From: an uncultured Chloroflexia bacterium
GTDB taxonomy: Bacteria; Chloroflexota; Limnocylindria; Limnocylindrales; CSP1-4
Assembly: GCA_963837825.1 (NCBI GenBank)
Contig: CAWIOR010000006.1
Location: forward strand, 111,954 to 175,953
Direction of reading: 5' to 3'
DNA length: 64,000 nucleotides
Shown here: positions 35,930-54,422 of the stretch, piece by piece
Layout: each line of letters begins with the position of its first letter
How positions within the stretch are numbered: the first letter of the stretch is position 1
Position numbers and translations under genes: made by a program
The notes under the pieces: model-generated
The model's input: the letters and a program-made list of their open reading frames with translations, nothing else
Databases searched by the model: none
What the model was told of the DNA's origin: nothing

Positions 35930-36883
35930 CCTCGAGAGCGACACGCCTCACGCGCGGCCCGGGAGCCTGTCCAGGCATGGGTGGCAGTCTTCGACACAGC
36001 GGGCCCAGACACTCTCGAGCGAGTGACGCCCAACGGTGTCGAGACTTGGCCCCTCCCGGATACGGATTACAACGGGTACATCGGTCAGGTGAAGATCGCA
36101 CCCGATGGAGGCGTATGGGTGACCGAACCGTACGCGCTAGTTCGATTCGATCCCACGGCGCACGCGGCGTCCGTGCTGCCCTTCGACCGCGACGTCACGG
36201 GTGCCTTCCCAGATGCGTGGAACCCCGACAGCCCTGTGATAGGCACCTGGATCTCCTCGGTCTGTTCTCATCGGACGGGTGGATGCTCGTCGCCCGGACC
36301 AACGTTCCGTTCGTGTCCATCGTGTCGGCGGCCGGACCGATGCTAGGCTCGATCCCGGTGCCGGCTGAATACGCAGGTGCACTCGATCTCGCCGAGGCTC
36401 CCGACGGGAGCGTTTACGTTGCCGGCGGCTACGCAACTTCCGACGCACCGGTCGCTCGGGTTTCGAAGACCGGTGCAGTGGTTGGAACGCTTGCGGGGCC
36501 AGCTTCGCGGTTCAGCCCAGGCTCGGACGGGCTCCTCATATCGGGGTCCGGCTCCACGGGCGTCTGGGGTCGATCCCTCGAATGGGGACGAGGCCGCGCT
36601 GGCCTCAGGCCTGTCGACGAACCCCGACTCTCTTGCTGTCCCCGACCCGAGAGGCGGCGCAATCGCGTACGACGCGAGCACTGGGACAATAAGCCGCCTC
36701 GTTAATGGCGAAATCGTGGATTTGATCACCATGGGCAAGACACGCGGTTTCGTCACGACTCCTCTCGGCGGCAGCGTCGCGGTGACTGGCAGTGCGAGAG
36801 TGACAGACCTCGCCACGGCCAGTGACGGTACGACCTACTTCCTCGACGGGAACTCCCAAAGGCTTCTCGCCGTCAAACTCTGA
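35930..36883 (+). CDS. Hypothetical beta-propeller-like protein (NHL/SMP-30-like repeats suggested) in the lower-GC island; frameshifted.
   Basis: Repeated 'G.VWVTEP / GSVYVAGG / DGTTYFLDG' motifs, each followed by a hydrophobic strand, are seen in three frames. Confidence 0.45.
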
Positions 36884-36914
36884 GTGACGAGTATCCGATC
36901 GGATCGGGGTCGAG

Positions 36915-37367
36915 ATGCGTCTGGCGTTTCTCGCTCTTGCAATTACCTTCTCCCTCTCAGGTTGCATCAACGCGGTGGCCACCAAGCCGGTCGCCACAAC
37001 AACATCGCCGACAGCCACGCCACCGCCAAGCCCCGCTGTGGTCTGTGGCGATCTCAGCCCGAAGGACTGTCGCGCCGGAGCATCGGCAGCCCTATCAGCG
37101 GCGCAAGGCCGGGGCGGATCACCGATCAGGGTCGAGCTCGGTCGCGGCGTCTGGTGCCCAACCCCTGGGCTGCTCTTCGTGGACACCACCTGCCCCGGAG
37201 GAGGCCTCCCTCCTGCCGGGGGTGGGCAGTGGATCGGGCACGCGCTCATCACGTTCGGCGGTTCGCAGGCGCAGGCCTACATCAACCTCGCCAAGAACGG
37301 TGAGGCGATCACTGGCGCGTTCGTAGCCCTCGCGACGCCCCCGGTCGCCACATCGTCGCCATACTGA
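36915..37367 (+). CDS. Lipoprotein (signal peptide with an LSGC lipobox), Pro/Thr-rich linker, cysteine-containing domain.
   Basis: 'MRLAFLALAITFSLSGC' is a textbook type II signal peptide. Confidence 0.6.
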   Translation: MRLAFLALAITFSLSGCINAVATKPVATTTSPTATPPPSPAVVCGDLSPKDCRAGASAALSAAQGRGGSPIRVELGRGVWCPTPGLLFVDTTCPGGGLPPAGGGQWIGHALITFGGSQAQAYINLAKNGEAITGAFVALATPPVATSSPY

Positions 37368-37478
37368 CCGAGGTCGGGCGGGCGTGGCGGACTTCGACGG
37401 CTGACTGCGGATCAAGCCGAAGGTCTGGGACGGACTCTGGCAGCCTTGTCTGGGGGCCCGCCCGCGCAGCCGACGCTA

Positions 37479-37770
37479 CGTGATCACGTACTCCCAGATG
37501 TACCAGCCGTCCTGAAGGTGCCGGTCGGCGCTTTCGCCTTCGTGGAGCCGAGTCACCAGAAAGCTCGAGTCGATGTCGGGCCCGGGGGGCGGACCGTTCG
37601 GGCTAAGTGCGAAGCCCCAGATCACGCTCACGCCGTACGCGACACCGAGGCGATAACCGTAACCCGTCGTCTCATAACAGCACATCGCGTACATCCCGGC
37701 CGGTGTGCGCAGATCGTACGGTGGAGGGTTATCGGCAAGGTCTTCGAAAGCCGACCGGCTCATCGAGAAG
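37479..37770 (-). CDS. Hypothetical small Trp/Tyr-rich protein; the start is uncertain (it could extend to 37973).
   Basis: 'MSRSAFEDLADNPPPYDLRTPAGMYAMCCYETTGYGYRLGVAYGVSVIWGFALSPNG...DGWYIWEYVIT' has non-artefact composition in the lower-GC region. Confidence 0.4.
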
Positions 37771-37981
37771 CGCAGCAGGAGCGGAAGACCACTCCAGATG
37801 GCTGCGACGGCGACGGAGCGGTCGCAACGACACACGGCAACGACTGGAGTGGTTGCTCGTCCCTGTCCTGGCGTGTGGGGCGGGGGATCGGCATGGGCGA
37901 ACACCTCGGCTCGTCCCTCCGAAGCAACGTACGGGCGGACACCGGATACCATCTCGGAGACCGACGCAACCATGAAGGGAG

Positions 37982-39714
37982 AGGCCCGACGGTGACCGAC
38001 CAGGCCGCGCTCGACCGTCTCAACGCCCGGGCCCGCGAGGAGCGCTGGGCGGAGCGGCTGTTCGCCCGTGACGCGAGCCTCTGGTCGGACGACCCGGCCG
38101 TCCAGGCGGCGATCGCCGAGCGGCTCGGCTGGCTCGATGCGCCCGGTCATTTCGCCGAGGAGACCGGACCGCTCGAGGCGTTCGGCGAGGCGATCCGCGA
38201 CGCCGGATTCACGACCGCGATCGTCGCCGGGATGGGCGGCAGCAGCCTGGCCCCGGAGGTGCTCAGGAAGACGTTCGGCGACGGCGGCGACTGGCTCGAG
38301 CTGCGCGTCCTCGACTCGACCGACCCGGCGGCCGTGGCCGCGGCGCGTCGACGACCTCTACCCGCTCGAGACGCTGTTCATCGTCGCCTCGCAAGTCCGG
38401 CACGACCGCCGAGCCGCTGGCCTTCCAGGCCGACGCCTGGGAGCGGATCCGGGCGGCGCTCCACGCCCGCCACCTGCACGACGAGTCACCGGGCGACTTC
38501 ATGGTCGCGATCACCGATCCGGGCCACAGCCTGGAGGCGATCCCCCACCACGACGACCTGCGCGAGGTCTTCCTCAACCCGCCGGACGTCGGCGGGCGCT
38601 ACTCCGCCCTGACCTACGTCGGGCTGGTCCCGGCGCAGCCTCATCGGGCTGGACCTCGACCCGTTCCTCGACAGCGCCCGGGCGATGCTCGACGCCTGCC
38701 GGGCGGCCGACCCGGCGACGAACCCCGGCCTGGGCCTTGGCCTGGTCCTCGGTGCGAACGCCGTGGCCGGGCGGGACAAGCTGACGTTCGTGGTCGACCC
38801 GGAGATCGCCGGCTTCGGCGCCTGGGCGGAGCAGCTCATCGCCGAGAGCACCGGCAAGCAGGGCGTGGGGATCGTCCCGGTCGACCTCGAGCCGCTCGGC
38901 GCGGCGGACGCCTACGGCCCGGACCGCGTCTTCGTGCGGATCAGCCTGGCCGACTCGGCCGGTCCGGCGAAGGCCTCGGACGGCAGTCGGCCGACGAGCT
39001 GCTGAATGCCCTCGAGGCCGCCGGCCACCCGGTGGTCCGGATCGCCCTCGACGACCCGATCGACCTGGCCGGCGAGTTCGTCCGCTGGGAGGTCGCCACG
39101 GCGATCGCCGGGATCGTCCTGGGGATCGACCCGTTCGACCAGCCGAACGTCGAGGAGGCCAAGGAGCACACCCGGCGGGCGCTGGCGGCGATCGAGACCG
39201 GCGACACCGGCCACGATGCCGGCCACGGCAGCGCGGCGGGCTCGGACGTCCCGTCGTACGTCCTGGCGACCGACCCGAACCTCGGCGGCGGAGCTCCGGA
39301 CCCACCTCCGGAACCTCAAGCCGAACGGCTATGCCGCCCTCCAGGCCTACGTCGCCGCCGACGCCCGGGCGGGACGAGGCGCTCGCCCGGATCCGCGCCC
39401 TCCTCCGCGACCGGACCCGTCGGGCGACGACGGCCGGGTACGGGCCGCGCTTCCTCCATTCGACCGGCCAGCTCCACAAGGGCGGCGCGCCGATCGGCTG
39501 GTTCCTCCAGCTGACCGCCGACCATCCGGCCGACCGGCCGATCCCGGGCAAGCCGTACACGCTTCGGCCAGCTCATCGACGCCCAGGCGGCCGGCGACCT
39601 GAGCGTGCTCCATGCGCACGGCCTGCCGGTCCTGCGCGTCCATCTCGGCCCCGACCCCGACGCCGGCCTGGCCGCGCTCGAGCGGGCCCTCGAAGCGGCA
39701 CTCCAGGAGGCCTG
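37982..39714 (+). CDS. pgi: Glucose-6-phosphate isomerase (actinobacterial/bifunctional-type PGI domain); about 3 frame changes.
   Basis: 'IVAGMGGSSLAPEV', 'FIVASKSGTTAEP' (by translation across a shift) and 'DVGGRYSALTYVGLVPA' is the PGI signature 2. RBS GAAGGGAGAGG with GTG. Confidence 0.8.
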
Positions 39715-39720
39715 ACCGTC

Positions 39721-40622
39721 ATGCGCATCGGGTTCATCGGCCTCGGCCGGATGGGGGCGAACATGGTCCGCCGGCTCCTCCGCGACGGCCACGAGATCGT
39801 CGCCTACAACCGGACCGCCGAGAAGACCCGCGAGATCGCCGGCGAGGGGGCGACCCCGTCGTTCAGCCTCGAGGAGCTCGTCGTCGAAGCTGGACAAGCC
39901 GCGCGCGGTCTGGGTGATGGTCCCGGCCGGCGACGCGACCGAGGCCCAGATCGACGAGCTGATGGACCTGCTCGAGCCGGGCGACACGATCGTCGACGGC
40001 GGCAACACGAACTTCCACGACGACGTCCGCCGCCACGCCAAGCTGGCCGACGAAGGGCCTCCGCTACGTCGACGCGGGCGTATCGGGCGGGATCTGGGGC
40101 CTGGCCAACGGCTTCTGCCTGATGGTCGGCGGCGAGGCCGACGCGGTCAGCCCGCTCGAGCCGATCTTCCGCTCGCTCGCCCCGGCCGACGGCTACCTCC
40201 ACGTCGGCGGCCCCGGCTCCGGGCACTACGTGAAGATGGTCCACAACGGGATCGAGTACGGCCTGATGCAGGCCTACGCCGAGGGCTTCGAGATCATGCA
40301 CGCGAGCGACTACACGCTCGACCTGGCGGCGATCTCGGGGCTGTGGAACCACGGCTCGGTCGTCCGCTCGTGGCTGCTCGAGCTGGCCGAGCGGGCGTTC
40401 AGCGCGAACGGCCAGGAGCTCGACCACCTCAAGGGCTGGGTGGCCGACTCGGGCGAGGGCCGCTGGACGGTCCAGGAGGCGATCGACCACGACGTCCCGG
40501 CGCCGGTCATCACCCTGTCCCTGCTCACCCGGTTCCGCTCCCGCCAGGACGACTCCTACGGGGCCAAGGTCCTGGCCGCCCTGCGCAACGAGTTCGGCGG
40601 CCACGCCGTGAAGACCGAGTAG
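39721..40622 (+). CDS. gnd: 6-phosphogluconate dehydrogenase (decarboxylating), short Gnd/YqeC-like form; about 2 frame changes.
   Basis: The Rossmann motif '[19 protein letters not shown]', '[30 protein letters not shown]' and the C-terminal '[31 protein letters not shown]'. Confidence 0.85.
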
Positions 40623-40631
40623 CCGAGCCCG

Positions 40632-42293
40632 ATGACCACGACCGCCGACCCGAAGCCGGGCACGGCGGCGCCCGCCGCGCCGACCGGCCCGGGACGCCCC
40701 GCGGACGATCCGCGAGCTGCGGCTCGCCCGCGACGGGAAGCGGCGCGCGCGCAGCCCCCAAGCTCGACAACCCGCTCCGCGAGGGGCTCCGCCTCGAGCG
40801 CGATGCCCGACCCGGCCTGCCTCGTCCTGTTCGGGGCGACCGGCGACCTCGCCCACCGCAAGGTCATCCCGGCCCTCTACCAGCTGTGGCGGACGAACCT
40901 CCTGCCCCACGAGTTCATGCTCGTCGCGGTCGGCCGCCGGCCGTACGACGACGAGTCCTTCCGGGCCGAGATCGGAGCGTCCCTCGAGGCGTACTCGCGG
41001 GTCCCGGTCGAGGAGCGGCCCGAACGGCGAGTTCCTGGCCCGGATCGTCTACCACCAGGGCGACTTCGCCGACCCGGCCGCGTTCGACCGGCTGGCGGCC
41101 CGCCTCGAGAGCGATCGACGAGGAGCACGGGCACGCGGGGCAACCGGCTCTACTACCTGGCCACCCAGCCGTCGGCCTTCACCGAGGTCATCGCCCAGCT
41201 CGGGCGGGTCGGGCTCGACCACGAGACCCACGGCGGGGGCTGGCGGCGGATCGTCATCGAGAAGCCGTTCGGGCGGGACCTCGACTCGGCCGTCCGGCTC
41301 AACCGCGAGGTCCTCAAGGTCTTCCGCGAGAAGCAGGTCTACCGGATCGACCACTACCTGGGCAAGGAGACCGTCCGCAACCTCCTCGTCTTCCGGTTCG
41401 GCAACGGGATCTTCGAGCCGCTCTGGAACCGGCGCTACGTCGACCATGTCCAGATCACCGTGGCCGAGTCGCTCGGGGTCGAGAGCCGCGGCGCGTTCTA
41501 CGAGGAGACCGGGGCGAGCCGGGACGTCCTCCAGAACCACCTGATGCAGCTGCTGAGCCTGGTCGCCATGGAGCCGCCGGCGACGTTCGAGGCGGACGCC
41601 CTGCGCGACGAGAAGGTCAAGGTCCTCCGGGCGATCGCTCCGCTGACGTCCCGACCAGGTCAGGACCGACGTCGTCCGCGGCCAGTACGGCCCGGGCTGG
41701 GTGGCCGCCCAGGCAGGTCCCGGGCTACCGCGCCGAGCCGGAGGTCGACCCCGAGTCGGAGACCGAGACGTTCGTGGCCGCCCGGTTCGAGATCGACGAC
41801 TGGCGCTGGGCCGGCGTCCCGTTCTACGTCCGGACCGGCAAGCGCCTGCCCGAAGCGCTCGAGCGAGATCGCGATCCAGTTCCGGCCGGTCCCCCATCGC
41901 CTGTTCAAGGACAGCTCGCGTCGACCCCGAGCCGAACCTCCTCGCGCTGCGGATCCAGCCCGACGAGGGGATCCTCCTCCGCTTCGGGGCCAAGGTCCCC
42001 GGGCTGGGCCTCGACGTCCGGGCGGTGAACATGGACTTCACCTACGGCTCGGCGTTCAACGTCGACTCGCCCGACGCCTACGAGACGCTCATCCTCGACG
42101 CCCTCCTCGGCGACGCCTCGCTGTTCACCCGGGCCGACGAGGTCGAGGAGGCGTGGGGCATCGTCACCCCGATCATCGACGCCTGGGTCGACATGCCGGC
42201 CCCCGACTTCCCGAACTACGAGGCGGGCTCGTGGGGACCGGCCGCGGCCGACGAGCTGATGGCCCGCGACGGACGGCGATGGCGACGGATCTG
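40632..42293 (+). CDS. zwf: Glucose-6-phosphate 1-dehydrogenase; frame changes in the N-terminal extension and near 41650 and 41900.
   Basis: '[22 protein letters not shown]', 'RIDHYLGKE' is the active site, and '[29 protein letters not shown]'. An alternative-frame '[11 protein letters not shown]' near the N-terminus is reminiscent of actinobacterial Zwf. Confidence 0.85.
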
Positions 42294-43601
42294 AGCCTCG
42301 CGGCCGCCGCCGGGGGAGCCGACCCTGCGCTGGACGTCGCGCGCGACGACGATCGACGGGATCGAGCGCGAGCTGGCCAGGATCTGGGCCGTCCCCGAGC
42401 TGACCACCGACCGTCGACGGCGTGGAGGCTCGCCACGTCGCCGCCCGGACGAGCGTGATGAACCTGGTCGTCATCGCCCGGCGGCCCGAGCTCGGCGAGC
42501 GCTGCGCGGCGATCATCTCGCAGCTCACCGGCCGCCATCCCTCGCGGACCCTGATCTGCTCGCCGACCGATCCGGACGGTCCGGGCTGGCTCGACGCCCG
42601 GATCACCGCCCAGTGCATGCTCCCGCGCGAGGGCGCGGCCGAGACCTGCGCCGAGACGATCTACGTGACCGCCGGCGGCGACACCGGCCGGCACATCGCC
42701 GCGATCGTCGAGCCGCTCCTCGTCCACGACCTGCCGGTCACCGTCTGGTGGCCGGGCGAGCCGCCGCTCGGGACCGAGCAGGCGAACGACCTGCTCGAGG
42801 ACGCCGACCGGCTCGTCGTCGACGGCTCCGGCTGGAGCGGCGACGGGCTCGAACGGCTGCGCGAGCTGGCCCGCCTGGTCGAGGCCGGCCACCTGGCGGT
42901 GTTCGACTTCGCGCTCGTGCGCCAGTCGCGCTGGCGCGAGGCGATCGCCTCGACGTTCGACATGCCCGAGTTCCTGCCCTACCTCCGCTCGATCCGGCGG
43001 ATCGCCGTGACCTACGGGACCCACGACGAGCTCGGGCGGCCGGGCGGCACGAACATGGTCAAGCCGCTCTATCACGTCGTCGTGGATCGCGTCCCGGCTC
43101 GGGATGTCGGTCAGCCGCTCGCTTGCGCCGCTGACCGGGGCGGCGGGTGGACCCGCCCAGGCGGCCCCCGCGGCCCATGCCGCCCACGCCGCGCACGCGG
43201 CCCACGCGGCCCATGCCGCCGGGAAGCACGTCGGGGCGAAGCCGCTCGCCGGCCGCGGCTACGCGGCGACGCTCCGGAGCGGCTCGAACGAGGTCGCCGT
43301 CGTCATGCGCCCGGTCCTGTCCGGGATGCCCTCGGGCACGACGCTCCGGGTCGAGCTCCTCGCCGAGCGGCGCGGCTCGGAGCTCCGGGTCGACGTCACC
43401 GCCGAGGCCGAGACGGTCGCGGTCCACGCCTGGCAGGACGGCGTCGAGGTCCTCGATCGGCGCTTCCTCGCGGCGCGCCGGACGGAGATGGACCTGCTCG
43501 CGGAGGCGATCGAGACCCCCCAGCGCGACCTCGTGTCCGACGGCTCGATCCGGATGGCCGCCCGGATCGCCCAGGCGCGCGAGACCGGTTCGGGCGGTTG
43601 A
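42279..43601 (+). CDS. opcA: OpcA, the glucose-6-phosphate dehydrogenase assembly/allosteric effector protein; frameshifted.
   Basis: '[15 protein letters not shown]', '[33 protein letters not shown]', '[12 protein letters not shown]' and the C-terminal '[22 protein letters not shown]...'. Confidence 0.8.
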
Positions 43602-44473
43602 CGGACCCGCTCGGCCCGCGGGGAGGGCGTCCCGTCCAGGCGACGCTCGAGGACTTCGCCCGCGCCGGCGAGCCGAGGCTCATCGTGGCCGCCGACCCCG
43701 ACGCCCTCGCCGAGGCTTCGGCGGTCCGGCTGGCCCACGGCCTGGCCGCGGCGATCGAGACCCGGGGGCGGGCCGACGTCGCCCTGACCGGTGGGTCGAC
43801 GCCCGGGGCGATGTACCGCCGTCTCGTCGAGCCGGACCTGCGCGACGGCGTCGACTGGGAGCGAGTCCACCTGTGGTGGGGCGACGACCGGTTCGTGCCC
43901 CGGACCGACCCGCTGTCGAACCTCGTCCTGGCCGACGAGTCGCTGCTCGCGCCCGACGGCGTCCCGATCCCGGCGGCCAACGTCCACCCGTTCCCGACGG
44001 ATCGGGCCATCGAGGACGGGCTCGGCCCGGGCTGGTGCGCCGCGACCTACGCGACCGAGCTCGCCGGTGCGCTCGGGTCGGTCGCCGGCTGGCCATCCTT
44101 CGACCTCGTCCTCGTCGGGATCGGCGCCGACGGGCACCTCCTGTCGGTCTTCCCGGGGAGCCCGGCGCTGGGCAGCGACCGGGTCGGGCTGGCGATCCCG
44201 GCGCCGACCCACATCGAACCGATGGTCGAGCGGGTCACCCTCAACCCGGCGATCCTCGGCGCGGCCGGGCACGTCCTGGCGATGGCCGCCGGGTCGGGCA
44301 AGGCCGGCGTGATCGCCCGGATCCTGACCGGGCCGCGCGACCCGGTCGCCCTTCCGGCGACGCTCGCCCGGCGGGCGAGCGCGACCTGGCTGCTCGATCC
44401 GGCCGCGGCCGCTGGGCTGGTCGAGCGCGACCGGAGTCAGGCGAGCCCCAGGACGAGCGGCTCGGCGCCCTGA
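43598..44473 (+). CDS. pgl: 6-phosphogluconolactonase.
   Basis: 'VALTGGSTPGAMYRRL...WERVHLWWGDDRFVP...FDLVLVGIGADGHLLSVFPGSPAL' matches the DevB/Pgl family. Confidence 0.8.
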   Translation: MTDPLGPRGGRPVQATLEDFARAGEPRLIVAADPDALAEASAVRLAHGLAAAIETRGRADVALTGGSTPGAMYRRLVEPDLRDGVDWERVHLWWGDDRFVPRTDPLSNLVLADESLLAPDGVPIPAANVHPFPTDRAIEDGLGPGWCAATYATELAGALGSVAGWPSFDLVLVGIGADGHLLSVFPGSPALGSDRVGLAIPAPTHIEPMVERVTLNPAILGAAGHVLAMAAGSGKAGVIARILTGPRDPVALPATLARRASATWLLDPAAAAGLVERDRSQASPRTSGSAP

Positions 44474-45121
44474 TCGTCCGCCCCGCCCGGCCCGGACGCC
44501 TCGACGGCCGGCCCGCCGAAGTGGGCCGTCCGGAAGACGGACAACCGGGTCCGCCGGTCGCGCCAGGCGTCGGCCGGGAGACCGGCCTTCCGACAGGCCG
44601 CCTCGATCATCTCGCGACCGCCCCACTGGAAGTGGTCGGCGACCTCGGGCAGGAGCAGCGCCACGGCCGGGCCGCGCTCGACGATCACGCCGTCGATCCC
44701 GGGCCGGAGGTCCGCCGGGGCGCTCGAGCGGGACCGGCGGCCCGAGCACGGAGATCTCGATCCGGACGGCCGGCAGCTCCCGAGCCGAGAGTGGGACGAA
44801 GCGCGGGTCGCGGAGGGCCGCCGTGCAGGCCGCAGCGGCGACCGCCTCGGAGATCGGCCGCTCGGCGACCAGGCCGCCCATGCAGCCGCGCAGCTCGCCG
44901 TCCTCGGTCAGGGTGACGAAGACGGCGGCCGGCTCGTCGAGCGTGGCGGTCGCGCGCAGCGCGTCCTCGAGCGGCTCCATCGACGTCCGCCCGGTCACGG
45001 CCGCGAGCGCCGTCCGGGCCAGCCGCAGGAGGCCCTCCTGCTCGTCGAGCGGGATCGTCACCGGGCCGGGCACGCCCGGCGGCGGGGCGGGTCCAGTCTT
45101 CGGAGCGAGGCGAGTGGTCAT
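44437..45121 (-). CDS. AMMECR1-domain protein (AmmeMemoRadiSam system protein A); frameshifted.
   Basis: 'MTTRLAPKTGPA...LRLARTALAAVTG...AAVFVTLTEDGELRGCMGGLVAERPI...ALRDPRFVPL' carries the LRGCxG motif. The C-terminal 'GVIVERGPAVALLLPEV' is in another frame. Confidence 0.75.
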
Positions 45122-45261
45122 CCCGAACGGCTCCTGAAGCACCGTCCGGATGGTGGCCTCGGAGCGCGCCGCCGGCCAGTGCGGAACGGGCCGGCGATCG
45201 GGGCCGGCCGGCACTGGGCGGGAACGCCGGCCGGGCCCACACTCACCCGAGGAGACTGCCG

Positions 45262-46354
45262 ATGGCCGCCTCGACTGTATCCACGCGCCCGTCCGCCGGG
45301 ACCGTCCCGACGATCCTCGCCGAGGAGCTGGCCGACGGCAGCGTCCGCTGCGGCGTGTGCGCCCATCGCTGCCTCGTCCGCCCGGGGCGGACCGGGATCT
45401 GCGGGGTCCGCCGGAACGAGGGCGGGCACCTCGTCTGCCACGCCTACGGGGCGGTCGTGGCGATCGGGATCGACCCGATCGAGAAGAAGCCGCTCTTCCA
45501 CGTCGCACCCGGCACGCTCGCCTACTCGATCGCCACGGCCGGCTGCCCGTTCCACTGCCGGTTCTGCCAGAACTGGGAGATCGCCCAGGGGCCGCGGCTG
45601 GGGCTGGAGCTGCCGACCACGTCCGCTCCCACCGGCGCGGGTGGTCGAGGAGGCGCTCGCCCACCGGGCGGACGCGGTCGCCTACACCTACGTCGAGCCG
45701 ACCGTCTTCCTCGAGTACGCCCTCGACACCGGTCGGCTCGCCCGCGAGGCGGGCCTGCGCAACCTGTTCATCACCGACGGCTACGCGACGCCCGAGGCGA
45801 TCGGCCTCCTGGCCAGCGTCCTCGACGCCGCCAACGTCGATCTCAAGGCCTTCGACGACGCCTTCTACCGCCGGCTGTGCGGCGCCCGACTCGCCCACGT
45901 CCTCGAGGCGATCGTCGGGCTGCGCCGGGCGGGCATCTGGCTCGAGCTGACGACCCTGATCGTGCCCGGTCAGAACGACGATCCCGCCGAGCTCCGCGCC
46001 CTGACCCGCTGGATCGTCGAGACGCTCGGCGTCGAGACGCCGTGGCACGTCAGCCGGTTCTTCCCCGCCTACCGGATGCTCGACACGCCGCCGACGCCGC
46101 TCGAGGCGCTCCGCCGGGCGGCCGACCTCGGGCGCGAGGCGGGGCTCGTCCACGTCTACGTCGGGAACGCCCCCGAGCTCGACCTCGAGGACACCCACTG
46201 CGCCGGGTGCGGCCGGCGCCTGATCGAGCGGCACGGCTACCGGGTCCGCGACCACCTGGCGGCCGACGGGAGCTGTCCGGGCTGTGGTCGGCCGCTGGCC
46301 GGCGTCGGGCTCGGACGGACCGCCGCGACCCGGGCCGCGGCGCTGTGCGGATGA
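45262..46354 (+). CDS. AmmeMemoRadiSam system radical SAM enzyme; one frameshift near 45620.
   Basis: An N-terminal Cys cluster 'VRCGVCAHRCLVRPGRTGICGVRRNEGGHLV' is followed by the CX3CX2C motif 'GCPFHCRFCQNWEI'. The C-terminus carries CxxC...CxxC ('HCAGCGRRL...CPGCGRPL'). It is divergent from AMMECR1 and overlaps memo by ATGA. Confidence 0.85.
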
Positions 46355-47271
46355 CGGAGGCGATGGCGATGGGCAGCGCGACGATCTCGGCGCCGATCCG
46401 CCGACCGGCGGTCGCCGGCGGCTTCTATCCGGCCGAACGCGATGAGCTGATCGAGCTCGTCGCCGGTCTCCTGGCCGAGGCCGCGCACGCGAGACGGGCG
46501 CCGACCCCGGGGGCCGGGGCGCTCGTCGGGATCCTCGTCCCGCACGCCGGCCTGAGCTACTCGGGCCTGGTCGCGGCCGCCGGCTGGCGGCGCCTCGAGC
46601 GCCCCGACCAGCCCGTGCCGACGATCGTCCTGCTCGGGACGAACCACGTCGCGGGCTGGCTCGACGGGGTCGGGGCGTGGGACGCCGGAGCCTGGCGGAC
46701 GCCGCTCGGCGACGTCGCCATCGACGTCGACCTCGCCGGGGCGATCGTCGGCCTCGGACGGCCGTTCGTCGTCGATCTCGCGGCCCACGGCGGCGAGCAC
46801 TCGATCGAGGTCCAGCTGCCGTTCGTCCAGACCGTCGCGCCGGCGGCCCGGATCGTGCCGCTGGCCGTGGCGAGCGGGACCGGTCCCGATGCCGTCGACG
46901 CCGGCCGCCGTCTCGGCGAGCTCCTCGCCGAGCGACGCCGGGCCGGCGAGTCGATCGTCGTCGCGATCAGCTCGGACATGGCTCACTACCCACCGGCCGG
47001 AGCCTGCTCCGCGGCCACGGAGGCGCTCCTGCCGTCGATCGTCGCCCTGGACGCGATGGGCCTGGCCCGGACCGAGGCCGGCCTCCGCCAGGCCGGGATC
47101 CACGGCCTGGCCTGCGGGATGTGCGGGATCGAGCCGACGGTGCTCGGGCTCGCCGCGCTCGAGGCGATGGGCGTCCGCGGCGGGACCCGCCTCGCCGCCG
47201 CGACCTCCGCCGACGCCGGCGGACCCGCGGATCGGACGGTCGGCTACCTGGCGGTGGAGTTCGACGCCTGA
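46351..47271 (+). CDS. MEMO1-family protein (AmmeMemoRadiSam system protein B); intact.
   Basis: 'PAVAGGFYPAE...GILVPHAGLSYSG...IVLLGTNH...HSIEVQLPFVQ...VAISSDMAHY' matches the Memo/extradiol-dioxygenase-like fold. Confidence 0.85.
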   Translation: MTEAMAMGSATISAPIRRPAVAGGFYPAERDELIELVAGLLAEAAHARRAPTPGAGALVGILVPHAGLSYSGLVAAAGWRRLERPDQPVPTIVLLGTNHVAGWLDGVGAWDAGAWRTPLGDVAIDVDLAGAIVGLGRPFVVDLAAHGGEHSIEVQLPFVQTVAPAARIVPLAVASGTGPDAVDAGRRLGELLAERRRAGESIVVAISSDMAHYPPAGACSAATEALLPSIVALDAMGLARTEAGLRQAGIHGLACGMCGIEPTVLGLAALEAMGVRGGTRLAAATSADAGGPADRTVGYLAVEFDA

Positions 47272-47293
47272 CCGGGCGGATCCGCTCGAGCCG

Positions 47294-47669
47294 TCAGAAC
47301 GACAGGGTCAGCTTCGCCCGGTCGGCCACGTCCAGGAAGTACGCGAAGCCGGCCGGCATGTCCACCTCGGCGGCGAGTCGATCGGTCGAGATGTCGCACG
47401 CCTTCATCGCCCGGGTGCAGGCGTAGACGTGGACGGTCCCATCCTCCTTCAGCTCCCGGAGGCGGCGGGCGACCTCCTCCCTGACCTCGTCCGCACCGGG
47501 CACGGTCGGGCCGAGGGGACCGGGACGGCCGACCCACGCCGACGGCGTCGCCGGTGAAGTAGACGTGTGCCTCCATCTCCATGGCGACGGCCGCCTCCAG
47601 GAGGTTCAGCGCGGTCTGGACGGCCTGCGGCCGCTCGGAGGAGATGACGACGGCGATCGACTCAGCCAT
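47294..47669 (-). CDS. DsrE/DsrF-like sulfur-relay family protein; one frameshift.
   Basis: 'MAESIAVVISSERPQAVQTALNLLEAAVAMEMEAHVYFTGDAV' and 'VHVYACTRAMKACDISTDRLAAEVDMPAGFAYFL' carry the conserved Cys. Confidence 0.6.
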
Positions 47670-47913
47670 CCGGGGTCCGCTCGAGCAGGATGCGGGTCTC
47701 CTTCCCCTCGGTCTGGTCCTCGAGGATCGGCTTGCCCGTCTTCCTGGCCCACGCCCGCACGACGTACGCGTGCTCGGCCACCGTGGCCTTGACCTCGAGG
47801 ATGTCGCCCGGAACGAGCTCCTTCAGGGCTCGCCGAACCATCTGGAGCGCGGAATCCCCGCACTCCTCCTCGGCTCTCGTGAGGTCGATCGTGCGCGCGA
47901 TCGTGTGTGCCAT
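47662..47913 (-). CDS. TusA-like (SirA/YedF/YeeD) sulfur-carrier protein.
   Basis: 83 aa: 'IDLTRAEEECGDSALQMVRRALKELVPGDILEVKATVAEHAYVVRAWARKTG' has the two-layered alpha/beta TusA pattern with an N-terminal Cys. Confidence 0.55.
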   Translation of the reverse strand: MAHTIARTIDLTRAEEECGDSALQMVRRALKELVPGDILEVKATVAEHAYVVRAWARKTGKPILEDQTEGKETRILLERTPDG

Positions 47914-47931
47914 GAGCGACGGGCCTCGACC

Positions 47932-48777
47932 CTAGGGCTTCTCGATCGGGGCGCCGACCATGTTGCCGAACTCGCTCCACGACCCGTCGTAGTTGACCAC
48001 CACCGGGTAGCCCAGCAGGTACTTCAGGACGAACCAGGTGTGCGACGAGCGCTCGCCGATCCGGCAGTAGGTGATGACCGACTTGTCGGGGGTGATCCCC
48101 TTCTCCGCGTACAGGGCGGCGAGGTCGCCGGCCGACTTGAAGGTGTCGTCATCCTCGATCGCCTTGGCCCACGGGATGTTCGCCGCACCGGGGATGTGGC
48201 CGCCACGCTGGGCGGCCTCGTTGGCGTACTCCGGCGGGGCGGTGATCTCGCCCGTGTACTCCGCCGGGGACCGCACGTCCACGTAGGCCACGTCGCTCCG
48301 GCCGAGCGACGAGAGGACTCCGGGCAGAAGGGCCCGCAGGCCGAGGTCGGCGCCGCCGGCCGAGTAGGTCGTCCGAGTGAAGCTCGGCACGTCCTCGGTC
48401 ATCTCCCGGCCCTCGTCGATCCACTTCCGACGGCCGCCGTTCATCAGGCGGACGTCGGCGTGCCGGTAGATCTTGAACGTCCAGAAGGCGAACGCGGCGA
48501 ACCAGTTGCGCATGTCGCCGTACAGGACCAGGGTGGTCTCGGGTGTCACCCCGACGCGGCCCATCAGCTCCTCGAACTGGCTCTTCGAGAGGATGTCGCG
48601 TCGGACCTGGTCGTTGATGTCCTTCTTCCAGTCGACCAGCGCCGCGTTGCGCAGGTGGCCGAGCTCGTAGGCGCTCTCGGGATCGTAGTCGACCTCCAGG
48701 AGGCGGACGCCGGGGTCGTCCTGATGCTCCTTGACCCACTCGGTGCTCACCAGAACCTTGGGATCCGCGTAATCCAT
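47932..48777 (-). CDS. Two-domain rhodanese, thiosulfate/3-mercaptopyruvate sulfurtransferase (SseA/CysA-like); intact.
   Basis: 281 aa. The active-site loop 'VITYCRIGERSSHTWFVLKYLLGYP' carries CRIGER. Confidence 0.85.
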   Translation of the reverse strand: MDYADPKVLVSTEWVKEHQDDPGVRLLEVDYDPESAYELGHLRNAALVDWKKDINDQVRRDILSKSQFEELMGRVGVTPETTLVLYGDMRNWFAAFAFWTFKIYRHADVRLMNGGRRKWIDEGREMTEDVPSFTRTTYSAGGADLGLRALLPGVLSSLGRSDVAYVDVRSPAEYTGEITAPPEYANEAAQRGGHIPGAANIPWAKAIEDDDTFKSAGDLAALYAEKGITPDKSVITYCRIGERSSHTWFVLKYLLGYPVVVNYDGSWSEFGNMVGAPIEKP

Positions 48778-48994
48778 CGTTCGCCTCCTGGCGTCTTGGC
48801 CTGGCTACGCTTGGTTGACCGGTCGCGACCGTGCGTGGATTCTAGCGCGCGGCTACCCCGTCGTTGGCCCATGCTGCGCGGCCCGGGTCGGGCCCCGGCA
48901 CGCACGTCGGGGGTCCGAGGGCGCACCATGTGGGTCGCCGTGCCACGTGGCGGGGTCGACCCTCGACCAGCGACTCGAGGCGGAGTGAGCGTCC

Positions 48995-49810
48995 GTGAGC
49001 GACACGCGTGGGACAACGCTCTCCCGGGACGGGACACCGATCGCCTGGTTCCGCTCGGGGACCGGACCGCCGATCGTCCTCGTCCACGGGGCGACCGCCG
49101 ACCACACCGCCTGGCGGACGGTCGGGCCGCTGCTCGCCCCGTCCCACACGCTCTACGCGCTCGACCGCCGCGGGCGCGGCGCCAGCGGGGACACGCCGCC
49201 GTACGCGATCGCCCGCGAGTACGAGGACGCGGCCGCGGTCGTCGACGCGGTCGCCGCGGACGAGGGCCGCCCGGTCGACCTCGTGGGCCACTCGTACGGC
49301 GGCCGGATCGGACTCGGCGCGGCGCTGCTCAGCCCGAACCTGCGGCGCCTGGTCGTCTACGAGGGGGCGCCCGCGCCGGAGGGTCGGTCGTTCCACGGCG
49401 AGGCGGTGATGGCCCGCCTCGAGGCGCTCGCCGCGGCGGACGATCGGGCCGGTCTCCTGGCCGACTTCCTGGGGACGGTCGTCGGGATGACGGCCGGCGA
49501 GCTCGACGCCTACCGCGCCTCGCCGTCCTGGCCGGCCCGGGTGGCGGCCGCGCCCACGGTCATCCGCGAGATGTGGGCCGAGGCCGGCGAGGAAGCCGGC
49601 CCGGAGCGCTACGCCGGGATCCGGATCCCGGTCCTCCAGATCGTCGGCGGGGAGAGCGGCTCCCTGTTCACCGACGGGACCTGGGCACTCGACCGGCTCC
49701 TGCCGAACGGCCGGGTCGTGGTCATCCCGGGCGCCAGGCACGCCGCCCACCACACCCACCCGGAGCGGTTCGCGGCCGAGCTCCGTGCCTTCCTCGAGTC
49801 GCCCGGGTGA
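48995..49810 (+). CDS. Alpha/beta-fold hydrolase; intact.
   Basis: 'IVLVHGATADHTAW...VDLVGHSYGGRIGL' is the GxSxG nucleophile elbow. Confidence 0.75.
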   Translation: MSDTRGTTLSRDGTPIAWFRSGTGPPIVLVHGATADHTAWRTVGPLLAPSHTLYALDRRGRGASGDTPPYAIAREYEDAAAVVDAVAADEGRPVDLVGHSYGGRIGLGAALLSPNLRRLVVYEGAPAPEGRSFHGEAVMARLEALAAADDRAGLLADFLGTVVGMTAGELDAYRASPSWPARVAAAPTVIREMWAEAGEEAGPERYAGIRIPVLQIVGGESGSLFTDGTWALDRLLPNGRVVVIPGARHAAHHTHPERFAAELRAFLESPG

Positions 49811-49853
49811 GCGTCCGGAGACGGCCCGCAGCCCGGGCCACTACCATCCGACC

Positions 49854-50999
49854 ATGACCGAACGCACGATCCCGATCGCCGACCCGGCCCCGTCGGGGGC
49901 GACCGACTCCGACGCCCGACCGTACTCACCGGGACTGGCCGGCGTGGTCGCCGGCGAGACCGCCCTCGCCCTCGTCGACGGGGAGAACGGCCGGCTCCTC
50001 TACCGCGGCTACCCGATCGGCCAGCTCGTCGAGCACGGGACGTTCGCGGCCGTGGCCGAGCTGCTCTGGACGGGCGAGTGGCATCCGGCCGCCCGGTTGG
50101 CCGCCGCGCCGCTGCCGTCTGCCGTCGAGGCCGTCCTGCGGGCCCTGCCGCGGGAGACGCTCCCGATGGACGCCCTCCGGACGGCGATCAGCGCCTGGGG
50201 TGCTGCCGAGCGCCCCCCGGCGCCACCGACCGTCGAGCAGGCCCGGGCGATCACCACCGTCGCCCCGACCGCGCTCGCCGCCTGGGGCCGGATCCGCGAG
50301 GGTCTCGAACCGGTCGCGCCGGACCCCGACCTGTCGCTCGCCGGCGCCTTCCTCCAGATGCTCACCGGGGAGCGCCCGGACGAGGCCCGCGCCCGCGCGC
50401 TCGACGCCTACTTCATCGTCGCCGCGGAGCACGGCTTCAACGCCTCGACCTTCGCCGCCCGGGTGATCACCTCGACCCGGTCCGACCTGGCCTCGGCGGT
50501 CTGCGGCGCGATCGGGGCGCTCAAGGGCCCGATCCACGGCGGGGCGCCGACCGAGGTCGTCAGCCAGCTCCACGAGATCGGCTCGGCCGACCGGGCCGAG
50601 GCCTGGATCCGGGCCGCGCTCGATCGCCGCGAGCGGTTGATGGGCTTCGGGCACCGGGTCTACCGGGCCTACGACCCTCGGGCGGCCGCGCTCCGCAAGG
50701 TCGCCGAGTCGATGGGCGGGATGGCCGACTGGCTCGACCTCGCGGTCAAGGTCGAGGACATCGCCCTGCGCCTGCTGGCCGAGCGCCATCCCGAGCGGCC
50801 GCTCAAGACGAACGTCGAGTACTACACGGCCGCCGTCCTCCAGGGCATCCAGCTCCAGCCCGAGTTCTATCCGGCGACCTTCGCCCTCGCCCGGAACGCC
50901 GGCTGGACCGCCCACTGCATCGAGCAGGCCGCGGCCGACCGGATCATCCGGCCCGACGTCCGCTACACGGGCCCGGCCGAGCGCGACCTGCCCGTCTGA
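49854..50999 (+). CDS. Citrate synthase family protein (citrate or 2-methylcitrate synthase, short type); intact.
   Basis: 'GFGHRVYRAYDPRA' is the signature region, and 'HGGAPTEVV' the catalytic His. Confidence 0.85.
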   Translation: MTERTIPIADPAPSGATDSDARPYSPGLAGVVAGETALALVDGENGRLLYRGYPIGQLVEHGTFAAVAELLWTGEWHPAARLAAAPLPSAVEAVLRALPRETLPMDALRTAISAWGAAERPPAPPTVEQARAITTVAPTALAAWGRIREGLEPVAPDPDLSLAGAFLQMLTGERPDEARARALDAYFIVAAEHGFNASTFAARVITSTRSDLASAVCGAIGALKGPIHGGAPTEVVSQLHEIGSADRAEAWIRAALDRRERLMGFGHRVYRAYDPRAAALRKVAESMGGMADWLDLAVKVEDIALRLLAERHPERPLKTNVEYYTAAVLQGIQLQPEFYPATFALARNAGWTAHCIEQAAADRIIRPDVRYTGPAERDLPV

Positions 51000-51035
51000 G
51001 CACCGCCCCGGCCGAGCTCCGCAGCCAGGCGAGCG

Positions 51036-52028
51036 TTACAGCCAGCCGCGGCGGCGGAAGACGAGGACCAGGACGACCAGCAGCACCGCCATCGCGGCGA
51101 GGATGGCCCAGAAGGCGCTGATGTCGCCCTCGCCGGGGACCTTGACGTTCATCCCGAAGATGCTCGCGACGAGGGTCAGCGGGAGGAGGACGACGCTGGC
51201 CGCGGTCAGGATCCGGAACGAGTCGTTGAGGCGGTGGGAGAGGACCGACTCGTTGGTCGACTCCAGTCCCTCGACGACCTCCTTGTAGTTCTCGAGGATG
51301 TCCCAGATCCGCTCGGCGGCGTCGCTGATGTCGTCGAAGTAGATCTCGAGCTCCTCGGCCAGGTAGCGCTGCTTGGCCTTCTCGAGATCGGCCAGCACGG
51401 CCTGCTGGGGGCGGACGATCTTGCGGAAGTTGATGATCTCCTGCTTGACGTCCGAGATGTCCCGGACGACCTGGTCGGAGCGACCCTCGAAGATGTCGTC
51501 CTCGATCCGCTCGAGCTTCAGCCCGACCTTGCGGAGCATCGGGAACGACGCGTCGACACTCCCATCGACCAGCTTGTAGAGGAGGTACCCGGAACCCTTC
51601 GAGAACGTCTCCTCACGGAGGTCTTCGCGCGCCTCGTACCGCTCGAAGATCGCCCGCAGCGGGGGGAACGGCTCGTTCGGCAGGGTGATCAGGAAGTCCG
51701 GCCCGACGAACAGGTCGACCTCGGCCGGGAGCAGCCGACGGGTCGTCTTGTCGAAGCTCGGGAACTGGAGAACGATGAACAGGTACTCGTCGTAGGCGTC
51801 GAGCTTCGGGCGCTGGTTGCGCGAGAAGAGGTCCTCGAAGTCGAGCGGGTGGAAGCCGTAGTCCGATTCGAGCCACGCCTGATCGCTCGGGTTCGGTCGC
51901 TCGACGTTCACCCAGCGCAGGCCGGCCGCCTCGATGACCTCGATCCGGGGCGTGCTCGGCAGCGTCTCGAGGACCGTCCGCTCGGCATGCGAGCGGCGCC
52001 GGAGCGTCGGGCGGGGCAGGTTGGGCAT
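51036..52028 (-). CDS. corA: Magnesium/cobalt transporter CorA; intact.
   Basis: The C-terminal TM pair carries the GMN motif 'ASIFGMNVKVPGE'. Confidence 0.9.
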   Translation of the reverse strand: MPNLPRPTLRRRSHAERTVLETLPSTPRIEVIEAAGLRWVNVERPNPSDQAWLESDYGFHPLDFEDLFSRNQRPKLDAYDEYLFIVLQFPSFDKTTRRLLPAEVDLFVGPDFLITLPNEPFPPLRAIFERYEAREDLREETFSKGSGYLLYKLVDGSVDASFPMLRKVGLKLERIEDDIFEGRSDQVVRDISDVKQEIINFRKIVRPQQAVLADLEKAKQRYLAEELEIYFDDISDAAERIWDILENYKEVVEGLESTNESVLSHRLNDSFRILTAASVVLLPLTLVASIFGMNVKVPGEGDISAFWAILAAMAVLLVVLVLVFRRRGWL

Positions 52029-52381
52029 CGGGCACCTCGACGGGACCCCAGCATTCTACGAGCGGGCGGGCACGTTTCTGGGGCCTACATGCGGCCCGTG
52101 GCGCGCGCGAGCGGCCCGACGGCGGCGCCCAGGGTCGAGCCGCCGCGCGCCGGACTTCGTCGTTCAGCAGTGGGTGTGGTGCGGGACCGCCGCGCCGGCG
52201 GCCGCCAGGCCGTCAGGCCGCCGCGGCCGGCACTCGTCGGCCCCGGACAGCGTTCCCGCTGCTAGGCGGTGACGTGCGACTGACGATCGGCTGTCCCGGA
52301 CCACGGGCGTTGCTGAGTGACGGGGAGCGGTCCGCGGATCGGGCAGGCGGCGCGGCGCGGCGGCCGTGCCGGACCACGTTC

Positions 52382-53704
52382 TCAGCCCGCGGCGCGCGCC
52401 GGCGGCCGGGTGCGGGCGGAGCGCCAGACGACCAGCGCCCCCATGAGGTAGATCGCGGCGCCGACCCAGAAGGGCGCCCACAACCCGAAGCCGACGACGA
52501 GCGCTCCGATCGTCGGGCCGACGATCCCCGCCGCATAGAGCGGCAGGTAGACGAGGTTCAGGGTCGCCGACCGCCGCTCGGCCGGGACCTCCATCGCGAG
52601 CAGCCCGAAGACCATCGCGCTGATCGCGGCCCCGAAGGCGGCCAGGGCGACCGCCACCAGGGCCAGGAGCGGGATCGACCCGACGACCGGCATCGCCAGC
52701 AAGGCGACACCCGCCCCCGCGAGCGCCGCGACGAGGACCGGCCGGAAGCCGATCCGGTCGCCGATCCAGCCGCCGACCGGGGAGACGAGCGCACCGACCA
52801 GGGCCGCCGTCCCCGTCACCAGGGCGATCGCGCTGGCCAACCCGGCGGCGTCGGTCGACACCCGCTCGACCACGACCGGGATGTACGACCGGCTCAGCTG
52901 GGTGCCGAGGAAGGCGACCCCGAAGATGGCGAAGATCCGGCGGACGGCGGGATCGGCCAGCACCCCGCGGACCGCCCCGAACGCCAGGTGCAGCACTCGC
53001 CCCTCGGGCACGACCTCCGGCCGGACCTCGCGCGAGCCCACGGCGACCAGCAGCGCCGTCGCGACCGACAGCCCCGCCGAGACCCAGAAGACCACGGCCA
53101 GGGGCAGGCCCAGACCGTCGACGATGAGCCCGCCGAGGACCGGCCCGACCGCGAAGCCGATCGGCCCGCTGGCCCCGAAGATCGCGATCAGCGTGCCGAG
53201 GCGCCACCGCGGGACGACGTCCCGGATCGCGGCGAGCATGACCCCGGTGTTGCCGAGCTGGAGCCCGACGAGGAGCATGCTCCCGGCGAGCTGCCACGGC
53301 TCGCGGCTGAGGGCGACGCAGGCGAAGACGACGGCCTCGACCACGGCGCTCCGGATGATCACCGCCTTGCGGCTGTACTTGTCGGCCCAGACGCCCCACA
53401 GCGGGACGAGCGGCGCACCGACGATGAAGATGAGCGAGCCGAAGATCCCCACGAACCGGAGCCGGTCGGGCTCGGCCACCCCCATCTCCCGCAGGTAGAG
53501 CGGCGCGAAGGCGAAGATCTGGCTGACCCCGAGGCCCTCGACCATCGAGGTGACCCAGAAGACCAGGAGGATGACCCGCCAGTCCGCGGCCGGGCGCTGG
53601 TCGGTGGCCGGAGGCTGGACGGGGCCCGACGAGGCGGGGGCCGGAGTCGTCGGCGCTGCGGGTGCGGGTGGCGTCGGGGTCGGGTCGGGAACGGTCGCGG
53701 CCAC
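52382..53704 (-). CDS. MFS transporter; intact.
   Basis: 12 TM pattern, Pro/Ala-rich N-terminus. Confidence 0.8.
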   Translation of the reverse strand: MAATVPDPTPTPPAPAAPTTPAPASSGPVQPPATDQRPAADWRVILLVFWVTSMVEGLGVSQIFAFAPLYLREMGVAEPDRLRFVGIFGSLIFIVGAPLVPLWGVWADKYSRKAVIIRSAVVEAVVFACVALSREPWQLAGSMLLVGLQLGNTGVMLAAIRDVVPRWRLGTLIAIFGASGPIGFAVGPVLGGLIVDGLGLPLAVVFWVSAGLSVATALLVAVGSREVRPEVVPEGRVLHLAFGAVRGVLADPAVRRIFAIFGVAFLGTQLSRSYIPVVVERVSTDAAGLASAIALVTGTAALVGALVSPVGGWIGDRIGFRPVLVAALAGAGVALLAMPVVGSIPLLALVAVALAAFGAAISAMVFGLLAMEVPAERRSATLNLVYLPLYAAGIVGPTIGALVVGFGLWAPFWVGAAIYLMGALVVWRSARTRPPARAAG

Positions 53705-53804
53705 CGCGACAGGCTAGCGGACGCGGGCCGTCCGGTGCGGTCGACCGCCGGCCGGGCCCTGGCCATCGACCCAGGGTTCACGCGGCGACGACCTTCGGAC
53801 GTGC

Positions 53805-54422
53805 ATGATGGCGGCGATGGATCGGATCGCCCTGCCGTCCGGCGCCCTCGTCGTCCTCGTCGGCGTGTCGGGCGCGGGGAAGTCGACGTTCGCCGCGCGG
53901 CACTTCCGCCCGACCGAGGTGCTGTCGTCGGATGCCTTCCGGGCCATCGTGGCCGACGACGCCGCCGACCAGCGGGCCAGCAGCGCGGCGTTCGAGCTCC
54001 TCTACCTGGCCGCCCGGCGGCGCCTCGAGCGCGGCCGGCTGACCGTGATCGACGCCACGAACGTGACGCGCTCCGCCCGGGTCGAGCTCGTCGCGCTCGC
54101 GCTCGCGGCCCGCCGGCCGGCCGTCGCGATCGTCCTCGATCCGCCGCTCGAGGTGTGCCTCGACCGGAACGCCGGCCGCGCGGGCCGGATCGTCGGAGTG
54201 GGGGTCGTCGGTCGCCAGGCGGACGAGCTGCAGCGCTCGCTCGGCGATCCGGACGGACTGGCGAGCGAAGGGTTCGCCGCGGTCCACCGGCTGCCGGATC
54301 CGGGCGTCGTCACCGAGGTGACCATCGTCCGCGCCGCCCGCCGAGGCGCGGAGGGTGCCGGGCCGGGTACGATTCCCGCCACGTGGGCCCGCTCGCCCGA
54401 CGACAGGAGGACCGCCCGATGA
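53805..54422 (+). CDS. P-loop kinase of the polynucleotide-kinase/AAA_33-like family; intact.
   Basis: 'VVLVGVSGAGKSTFAARHFRPTEVLSSD...LTVIDATN...VAIVLDPPLEVCLDRNAGR' matches the Walker A and the Pnkp-kinase-like layout. Confidence 0.65.
   Translation: MMAAMDRIALPSGALVVLVGVSGAGKSTFAARHFRPTEVLSSDAFRAIVADDAADQRASSAAFELLYLAARRRLERGRLTVIDATNVTRSARVELVALALAARRPAVAIVLDPPLEVCLDRNAGRAGRIVGVGVVGRQADELQRSLGDPDGLASEGFAAVHRLPDPGVVTEVTIVRAARRGAEGAGPGTIPATWARSPDDRRTAR

Follow-up and report, generated by a model that had tools for sequence, protein, structure and literature searches.

An AmmeMemoRadiSam system of Limnocylindria Chloroflexota whose AMMECR1 and radical SAM genes are almost certainly broken by single-base assembly errors

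Within a 64,000-nucleotide stretch of contig CAWIOR010000006.1 from an uncultured Chloroflexia bacterium (hereafter the window), three contiguous genes encode an AMMECR1 protein, a radical S-adenosylmethionine (SAM) enzyme (rSAM) and a Memo protein. That these three constitute an AmmeMemoRadiSam system leaves very little room for doubt. The account that we favor, and consider highly probable as a whole, is that of a typical AmmeMemoRadiSam system of Limnocylindria Chloroflexota, with genes broken by single-base assembly insertions. The locus adds one more ordinary example to a catalogued system and follows the gene order that is standard for its class. Its parts are as follows.

44437-45121, minus strand: AMMECR1 (AmmeMemoRadiSam system protein A), 227 amino acids after deletion of one extra base at about 44726
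About 44726: extra base in AMMECR1, GCGCTC[G]AGCGGG in plus-strand orientation, absent from the related loci L001, L002, L081, L082, L084, L085 and L086
45122-45261: spacer of 140 nt between the divergent AMMECR1 and rSAM genes, from sequence inspection
45262-46354, plus strand: AmmeMemoRadiSam system radical SAM enzyme, 363 amino acids after deletion of one extra base at about 45619
About 45619: extra base in the rSAM gene, CCGACC[A]CGTCCG, absent from L001, L002 and L081-L086
46351-47271, plus strand: Memo (AmmeMemoRadiSam system protein B), 306 amino acids, an intact open reading frame (ORF)

An earlier, sequence-only reading of the window had placed three genes at 44437-47271 and had described AMMECR1 as divergent from an ATGA-coupled rSAM-Memo pair. 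Three-frame translation combined with tblastn located the genes at the same coordinates, and the arrangement was also borne out. Indeed, AMMECR1 on the minus strand and rSAM-Memo on the plus strand point away from each other across the 140-nt spacer, GGAG-type ribosome-binding sites lie 7 to 8 nt ahead of the ATG of both AMMECR1 and rSAM, and the TGA of rSAM overlaps the ATG of Memo in an ATGA (GGATGACG, 46350-46357). All three genes are most likely intact in the organism, a divergent promoter region driving their expression and translation of Memo being coupled to that of rSAM. Rfam, promoter and terminator scans of the 43.0-49.5 kb segment returned no Rfam family and no consensus for a sigma-70-like promoter or an intrinsic terminator. 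The G+C content of the region is about 75%, so that long spurious ORFs are common and stop-to-stop ORF tables are misleading.

The sequence-only reading had also proposed to search the products with hidden Markov models specific to the AmmeMemoRadiSam subfamilies. After repair of the frames, all three products passed the curated NCBIfam cut-offs (99 bits for TIGR04335, 220 for TIGR04337 and 26 for TIGR04336). AMMECR1 scored 154.6 bits on TIGR04335 (profile positions 3-175 of 175), rSAM 347.2 bits on TIGR04337 (5-332 of 349) and Memo 196.3 bits on TIGR04336 (1-268 of 270). The Pfam assignments were in agreement, with 159.9 bits on PF01871 for AMMECR1, 156.3 bits on PF01875 for Memo and 75.5 bits, against 29.5, on PF04055 for rSAM. 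Furthermore, three rSAM orthologues from Limnocylindrales metagenome-assembled genomes (MAGs), with 77-79% identity (P0035, P0055 and P0060), bear the NCBI name "AmmeMemoRadiSam system radical SAM enzyme". The family is large, comprising more than 7,900 close homologues and 1,471 clusters at 50% identity (E <= 1e-30). All close relatives are MAGs of Chloroflexota, bearing the labels Limnocylindria, Limnocylindrales or "uncultured Chloroflexia", and the earlier choice of Actinomycetota as the comparison group was therefore the wrong phylum. Set beside the AmmeMemoRadiSam system as catalogued (TIGR04335/TIGR04336/TIGR04337; called "Memo-Ammecr1 systems" by Aravind and colleagues), the locus shares the families, their adjacency, the cysteine and metal-ligand signatures and the rSAM-Memo coupling. 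Nothing of substance differs: a divergent AMMECR1 is a habit of Limnocylindria, and two of the genes here carry what we take to be sequence errors.

The triad had previously been called complete. As given it is not, the earlier reading having missed that both AMMECR1 and rSAM are frameshifted; Memo alone has an uninterrupted frame. In the rSAM gene, codons 1 to about 120, including the CX3CX2C motif, are in frame 0 and the remaining codons (about 243) in frame +1. In AMMECR1, the frame switches after about codon 133, leaving an N-terminal part from 45121 to about 44714 and a C-terminal part from 44718 to 44440. Because out-of-frame stops are scarce at such a G+C content, frame 0 of the rSAM N-terminal part stays open through junk into Memo, generating a spurious ORF of 669 amino acids (45262-47271). 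Neither unrepaired AMMECR1 piece reached the TIGR04335 cut-off (93.4 and 36.9 bits). On TIGR04337, the N-terminal rSAM piece scored 95.1 bits and the C-terminal piece, which does not contain CX3CX2C, 239.1 bits; no unrepaired piece holds both this motif and the barrel. Removal of a single base restored an rSAM of 363 amino acids, the length of its orthologues P0001-P0008, and an AMMECR1 of 227 amino acids. The repaired rSAM is 95% identical to P0001.

We compared the DNA with that of relatives, namely L081, a 27-kb contig with 85% nucleotide identity, and L082-L086, five contigs with about 92% identity that stem from short-read metagenomes of different samples. In the DNA alignment, the extra bases at 44726 and 45619, as well as one at 47540 that shifts the frame of a neighboring DsrE-like gene, were missing from each of the L082-L086 contigs covering the site, from L081 and from L001/L002. 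Within conserved coding sequence from 33.5 to 47.6 kb, alignment to relatives revealed 39 one-base insertions in the window and 2 one-base deletions. The insertions strike tkt (at least 11), rpiB (3), the genes from pgi through gnd and zwf to opcA (about 22) and the DsrE-like gene; pgl alone in the pentose-phosphate cluster is spared. The coding sequence between 47.6 and 51.4 kb contained none. A frame-plot heuristic, which recovered all three alignment-confirmed sites, counted 44 same-strand frame changes without an in-frame stop over the whole window and none at 48-60 kb. The affected parts are 1-47600 and 60000-64000, with clean stretches at 8000-12000 and 48000-60000.

These data bear on the alternative that the frameshifts are real, AMMECR1, rSAM and much of the neighboring pentose-phosphate cluster having recently become pseudogenes. 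The breaks are indeed present in the window as given, and their clustering in some regions and absence from others could in principle represent regional decay. However, so strong an excess of insertions over deletions is a technical rather than a mutational signature. Central metabolism is hit repeatedly, with several insertions in each of tkt, pgi, gnd and zwf. Premature stops are lacking, the periodicity of G+C at third codon positions is kept, and every relative is intact, including the contigs of about 92% identity from five different samples. In addition, the ratio of nonsynonymous to synonymous substitution (dN/dS) in rSAM was 0.14 before the break and 0.17 after it in comparison with L082, and 0.15 and 0.12, respectively, in comparison with L081. 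Being similarly low on both sides, it indicates no decay after the frameshift, and the high identity of the repaired protein to P0001 likewise speaks against pseudogenes. We consider this alternative improbable. As for decoding of the frame changes by programmed ribosomal frameshifting, the presence of the frame changes is all that speaks in its favor. Both sites lack a slippery heptamer, all relatives lack the extra base and read the same protein in one continuous frame, and unrelated genes show such events by the dozen, which leaves this mechanism a negligible probability. The comparison with relatives thus indicates that the frame breaks in AMMECR1 and rSAM are almost certainly assembly consensus errors and not pseudogenes. 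The rSAM and AMMECR1 sequences need correction before cloning and, given the density of one-base insertions, split, fused or truncated genes from this window need to be checked against relatives.

We next considered gene order in 86 related loci, whose flanking coding segments were delimited by frame-plot and then clustered. The trio was adjacent in 71 of them. The divergent order found in the window, AMMECR1(-)|rSAM(+)Memo(+), accounted for 65 loci, from Limnocylindria, and the colinear order rSAM-Memo-AMMECR1 for 6, in Eisenbacteria and Acidobacteriota. More generally, the AMMECR1, rSAM and Memo families co-occur across phyla. Furthermore, single-chain triple fusions exist, with the domain order rSAM-AMMECR1-Memo in P0206 and rSAM-Memo-AMMECR1 in P0152, each domain scoring over its system-specific cut-off, and pairwise fusions among the three families occur in P0265 and P0207. 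The analysis shows that AMMECR1, rSAM and Memo form one functional unit.

Other fusions involve electron-input modules. The TIGR04337 rSAM domain (344-416 bits) is fused to a CysJ-like flavodoxin-FAD-NAD(P) reductase in P0199 and to DsbD_2, FMN_bind or NosR-NapH-type ferredoxin membrane modules in P0130, P0138 and P0155, an indication that the enzyme genuinely requires low-potential electrons. Together, the triple fusions and the fusions to reductase modules argue for one modification machine that depends on a reductant. This support is general and not specific to the window. The built-in electron-input modules, several of which are membrane-anchored, might guide the choice of a tractable family member. 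The variants seen across P0130, P0138, P0155, P0161 and P0199 comprised a DsbD_2 membrane domain, DsbD_2 with FMN_bind and a NosR/NapH-type polyferredoxin, an RnfG-like FMN_bind with Fer4_5, a CysJ-like diflavin reductase and a beta-propeller.

Some loci showed further arrangements. An rSAM-Memo pair with no AMMECR1 match nearby was found in L045, L049, L052 and L063. In three Eisenbacteria loci (L071 2546-6067, L072 8998-12555 and L076 9055-12504), two Memo paralogues stand in tandem, giving the order rSAM-Memo-Memo'-AMMECR1; in L076, Memo' shares its reading frame with AMMECR1, to which it may be fused. The second Memo starts with a hydrophobic, lipobox-like segment (…AALLFGSATCSSP…), which would be odd for the partner of a cytoplasmic rSAM.

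Several observations weigh against the favored account. As it stands, the sequence encodes neither a full-length AMMECR1 nor a full-length rSAM; the insertions do not extend homopolymers, and they are regionally clustered. Moreover, in three Limnocylindria loci (L003 9167-10894, L030 9222-10942 and L065 8825-10852), AMMECR1(-) and Memo(+) form a divergent pair with no rSAM in between, and no rSAM gene was found elsewhere in the roughly 20 kb examined around them. Contiguity of the triad is thus not constant in Limnocylindria.

The rSAM carries three cysteine motifs: an N-terminal module CX2CX3CX9C (C30, C33, C37 and C47), the radical SAM motif CX3CX2C (C95, C99 and C102) and a C-terminal module CX2C-X21-CX2C (C313, C316, C338 and C341). 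All eleven cysteines were invariant in the 67 locus-derived orthologues, including seven divergent ones at 38-42% identity, which come from Eisenbacteria, Acidobacteriota and one unclassified bacterium. In 128 representatives of 50%-identity clusters, sharing 38-55% identity with P0001, each was at least 99% conserved. The radical SAM triplet C95, C99 and C102 was invariant throughout (67/67 and 129/129 sequences), and the TIGR04337 profile alignment spans both four-cysteine regions. The sequence-only reading was therefore right that extra cysteine clusters are present, but they are not a special addition: invariant across the TIGR04337 family, the four-cysteine modules are a family-defining signature, additional only relative to the pyruvate formate-lyase activating enzyme (PFL-AE), and nothing peculiar to this locus. 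The N-terminal module probably serves as an auxiliary Fe-S site, and its C-terminal counterpart is probably a zinc-ribbon-like hairpin. Limnocylindria rSAM orthologues also have a C-terminal tail of about 20 residues, predicted with low confidence and absent from other phyla, that often ends in Cys-Gly. In the window, the tail (about 46300-46354) ends in …ALCG, the consensus end being PCG. The position of its cysteine, C362, is occupied by cysteine in 29 of the 67 orthologues taken from the loci and in about 1% of the broad set. The Cys-Gly tail may reflect the overlap with the start region of Memo.

An AlphaFold2 model of P0001 was predicted with good scores (pLDDT 84.8, pTM 0.85), including the beta-rich N-terminal module and the C-terminal hairpin. 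The best solved match was the E. coli PFL-AE (E 2e-13, TM score 0.81 over the target, 17% identity), the match being limited to a core of about 250 residues; lipoyl and biotin synthases were among the weaker matches. The rSAM and E. coli PflA (PDB 3c8f, 3cb8 and 8fo0) share the partial-TIM-barrel radical SAM core and CX3CX2C, with a root-mean-square deviation of about 3 Å. However, PflA (245 amino acids) has neither the N-terminal CX2CX3CX9C module of about 75 residues nor the C-terminal CX2C...CX2C hairpin of about 50 residues, and no glycyl-radical enzyme partner accompanies the rSAM here.

This structural match, together with the label "pyruvate formate lyase activating enzyme" that Joint Genome Institute (JGI) pipelines give to orthologues, would fit a generic glycyl-radical-enzyme activase of the PFL-AE type that has AMMECR1 and Memo next to it by chance. 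The profile scores argue otherwise. Glycyl-radical activase models gave only 20-42 bits on the rSAM against cut-offs of 131-500 (TIGR02493 39.6/231.75, TIGR02494 42.0/174.35, TIGR02495 34.7/131.15 and TIGR04041 39.8/250.2), whereas the TIGR04337 score lies far over its own cut-off. Furthermore, a glycyl-radical enzyme gene was not among the recurrent neighbors of the 86 loci, the triad is syntenic in at least three phyla, and the three genes are fused as one polypeptide in other organisms. We thus regard a generic activase, which the sequence-only reading had itself named as an outcome that would refute its assignment, as practically out of the question and retain the assignment to the AmmeMemoRadiSam system.

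The two partner proteins also carry the residues typical of their families. Memo retains H65, H99, E149/H150, D209, H212 and C258, of which H65, H99, D209, H212 and C258 were each at least 97% conserved among 77 orthologues. Its identity to human MEMO1 (PDB 3bcz, 7kq8 and 7l5c) is low (E 2e-9), but the PHAG, GxxH, EHS and SSDxxH motifs align with His49, His81, His131, Asp189 and His192 of the human protein, with H65, H99, D209 and H212 corresponding to His49, His81, Asp189 and His192. C258 lies outside the HMMER alignment and is equated with Cys244 by motif only. In MEMO1, the putative metal site consists of His49, His81, Asp189, His192 and Cys244 (PMC9477392). The closest relative of AMMECR1 in the PDB was PH0010 (1vaj; E 2e-24). 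The LRGCxG motif of the window's AMMECR1, aligned to LRGCIG of PH0010, is retained as in the archaeal AMMECR1 structures (PH0010 1vaj, MM0484 1zq7 and ST0229 1wsc), and L77, R78, G79, C80 and G82 were each at least 97% conserved among 59 orthologues. To our knowledge, eukaryotic MEMO1 and AMMECR1 act without a dedicated radical SAM partner.

On the basis of homology, fusions and published predictions, we tentatively outline a mechanism, which as a whole we hold to be possible rather than likely. An electron from reduced flavodoxin or ferredoxin would reduce the [4Fe-4S] cluster bound by CX3CX2C, and SAM would be cleaved to the 5'-deoxyadenosyl radical. This radical would then abstract a hydrogen from a substrate bound to AMMECR1, which has a RAGNYA-fold ligand-binding domain. 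The invariant LRGCxG cysteine of AMMECR1 may act as a nucleophile or thiyl relay, according to a proposal in PMC2034487. Memo would provide a LigB-type non-haem metal centre (His/His/Asp/His/Cys) for accompanying redox or ring chemistry.

In the literature searched, we found no assignment of an experimental function to the AMMECR1, Memo and rSAM proteins, only incidental annotations, human genetics and papers of the Aravind group; this is in agreement with the earlier statement that the function of the system is undefined. A comparative study of Memo systems by Burroughs et al. in 2019 reportedly predicted a nucleotide base or an isoprenoid as the substrate. The neighborhood association and the hypothesis of RNA-base modification were put forward in PMC2034487, and PMC7159879 cites "Memo-Ammecr1 systems". 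The prokaryotic triad is the most promising route to the function of AMMECR1 and MEMO1, two proteins whose conservation extends from archaea to humans and that are linked to human disease. The present locus is one among thousands of equivalents and offers no new handle on the function of AMMECR1 and Memo.

The genes flanking the system, which lie outside it, are the following.

43634-44473 (start approximate), plus strand: 6-phosphogluconolactonase (pgl), from tblastn; its L081 orthologue matches PF01182
47294-47669, minus strand: DsrE-like protein, 124 amino acids after deletion of one extra base at about 47540; its L083 orthologue scores 39.3 bits on PF02635
47662-47913, minus strand: TusA-like small protein, 83 amino acids, 27.5 bits on PF01206 with a gathering score of 28.6 (a weak call)
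47932-48777, minus strand: two-domain rhodanese, 281 amino acids, intact, 102.8 bits on PF00581 in two stretches, with orthologues in L082-L086

On one side, pgl closes a plus-strand pentose-phosphate cluster (33500-44473) of tkt, rpiB, one minus-strand gene, pgi, gnd, zwf, opcA and pgl. The cluster is syntenic with L081, where all genes are intact and pgl follows the genes for G6PD and OpcA. Ending at 44473, pgl adjoins AMMECR1 and is convergent with it. On the other side, the DsrE-like, TusA-like and rhodanese genes (47294-48777) stand between Memo and an alpha/beta-hydrolase gene and are convergent with Memo. The positions given earlier, with pgl directly upstream and a sulfur-relay triad downstream, were therefore accurate. 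As functional context, however, the flanks carried no signal: both are convergent with the triad and hence not co-transcribed with it, the zwf-opcA-pgl flank was found in the nearest relatives only (about genus level among the 86 loci), and the sulfur-relay block was confined to the contigs L082-L086 of about 92% identity. In L001, L002 and L081, this block is absent and the alpha/beta-hydrolase gene directly follows Memo. From this comparison, the DsrE/TusA/rhodanese block is a recent lineage-specific insertion or loss. Clustering of the flanks of the 86 loci revealed no conserved fourth gene. The commonest neighbor, a major facilitator superfamily (MFS) transporter, was present in 26 of the 86, and the other recurrent ones were an ABC exporter, phosphoglucomutase, glutamine synthetase, a phosphoesterase, an HtrA-like protease and xanthine-dehydrogenase subunits.

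One could nevertheless suppose that the neighbors are functional, the oxidative pentose-phosphate operon, supplying NADPH, and the DsrE/TusA/rhodanese relay being tied to the triad, for instance by delivering persulfide sulfur to a sulfur-inserting rSAM. The invariant N-terminal four-cysteine module would then hold an auxiliary Fe-S cluster that is sacrificed, as in LipA, BioB and MiaB, or reloaded. The adjacency seen in the window and in L082-L086 is consistent with this idea, as are the presence of an invariant extra module that could hold such a cluster and the weaker structural matches to lipoyl and biotin synthases. If true, sulfur insertion into a substrate would be the first chemical handle on the function of AMMECR1 and Memo. 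However, the convergent orientation of both flanks, their narrow distribution and the fact that even the top neighbor recurs in fewer than a third of the loci, the others being unrelated housekeeping genes, make such a link very improbable. The pentose-phosphate and sulfur-relay genes are neighbors by lineage history and not partners.

Finally, the window differs from the contigs of about 92% identity by two longer gaps. One, an in-frame deletion of 42 nt at 45081-45083, shortens the proline-rich N-terminal tail of AMMECR1; the other, a deletion of 51 nt at 47285-47293, falls in the spacer between Memo and the DsrE-like gene. Both look like natural variation and not like errors.

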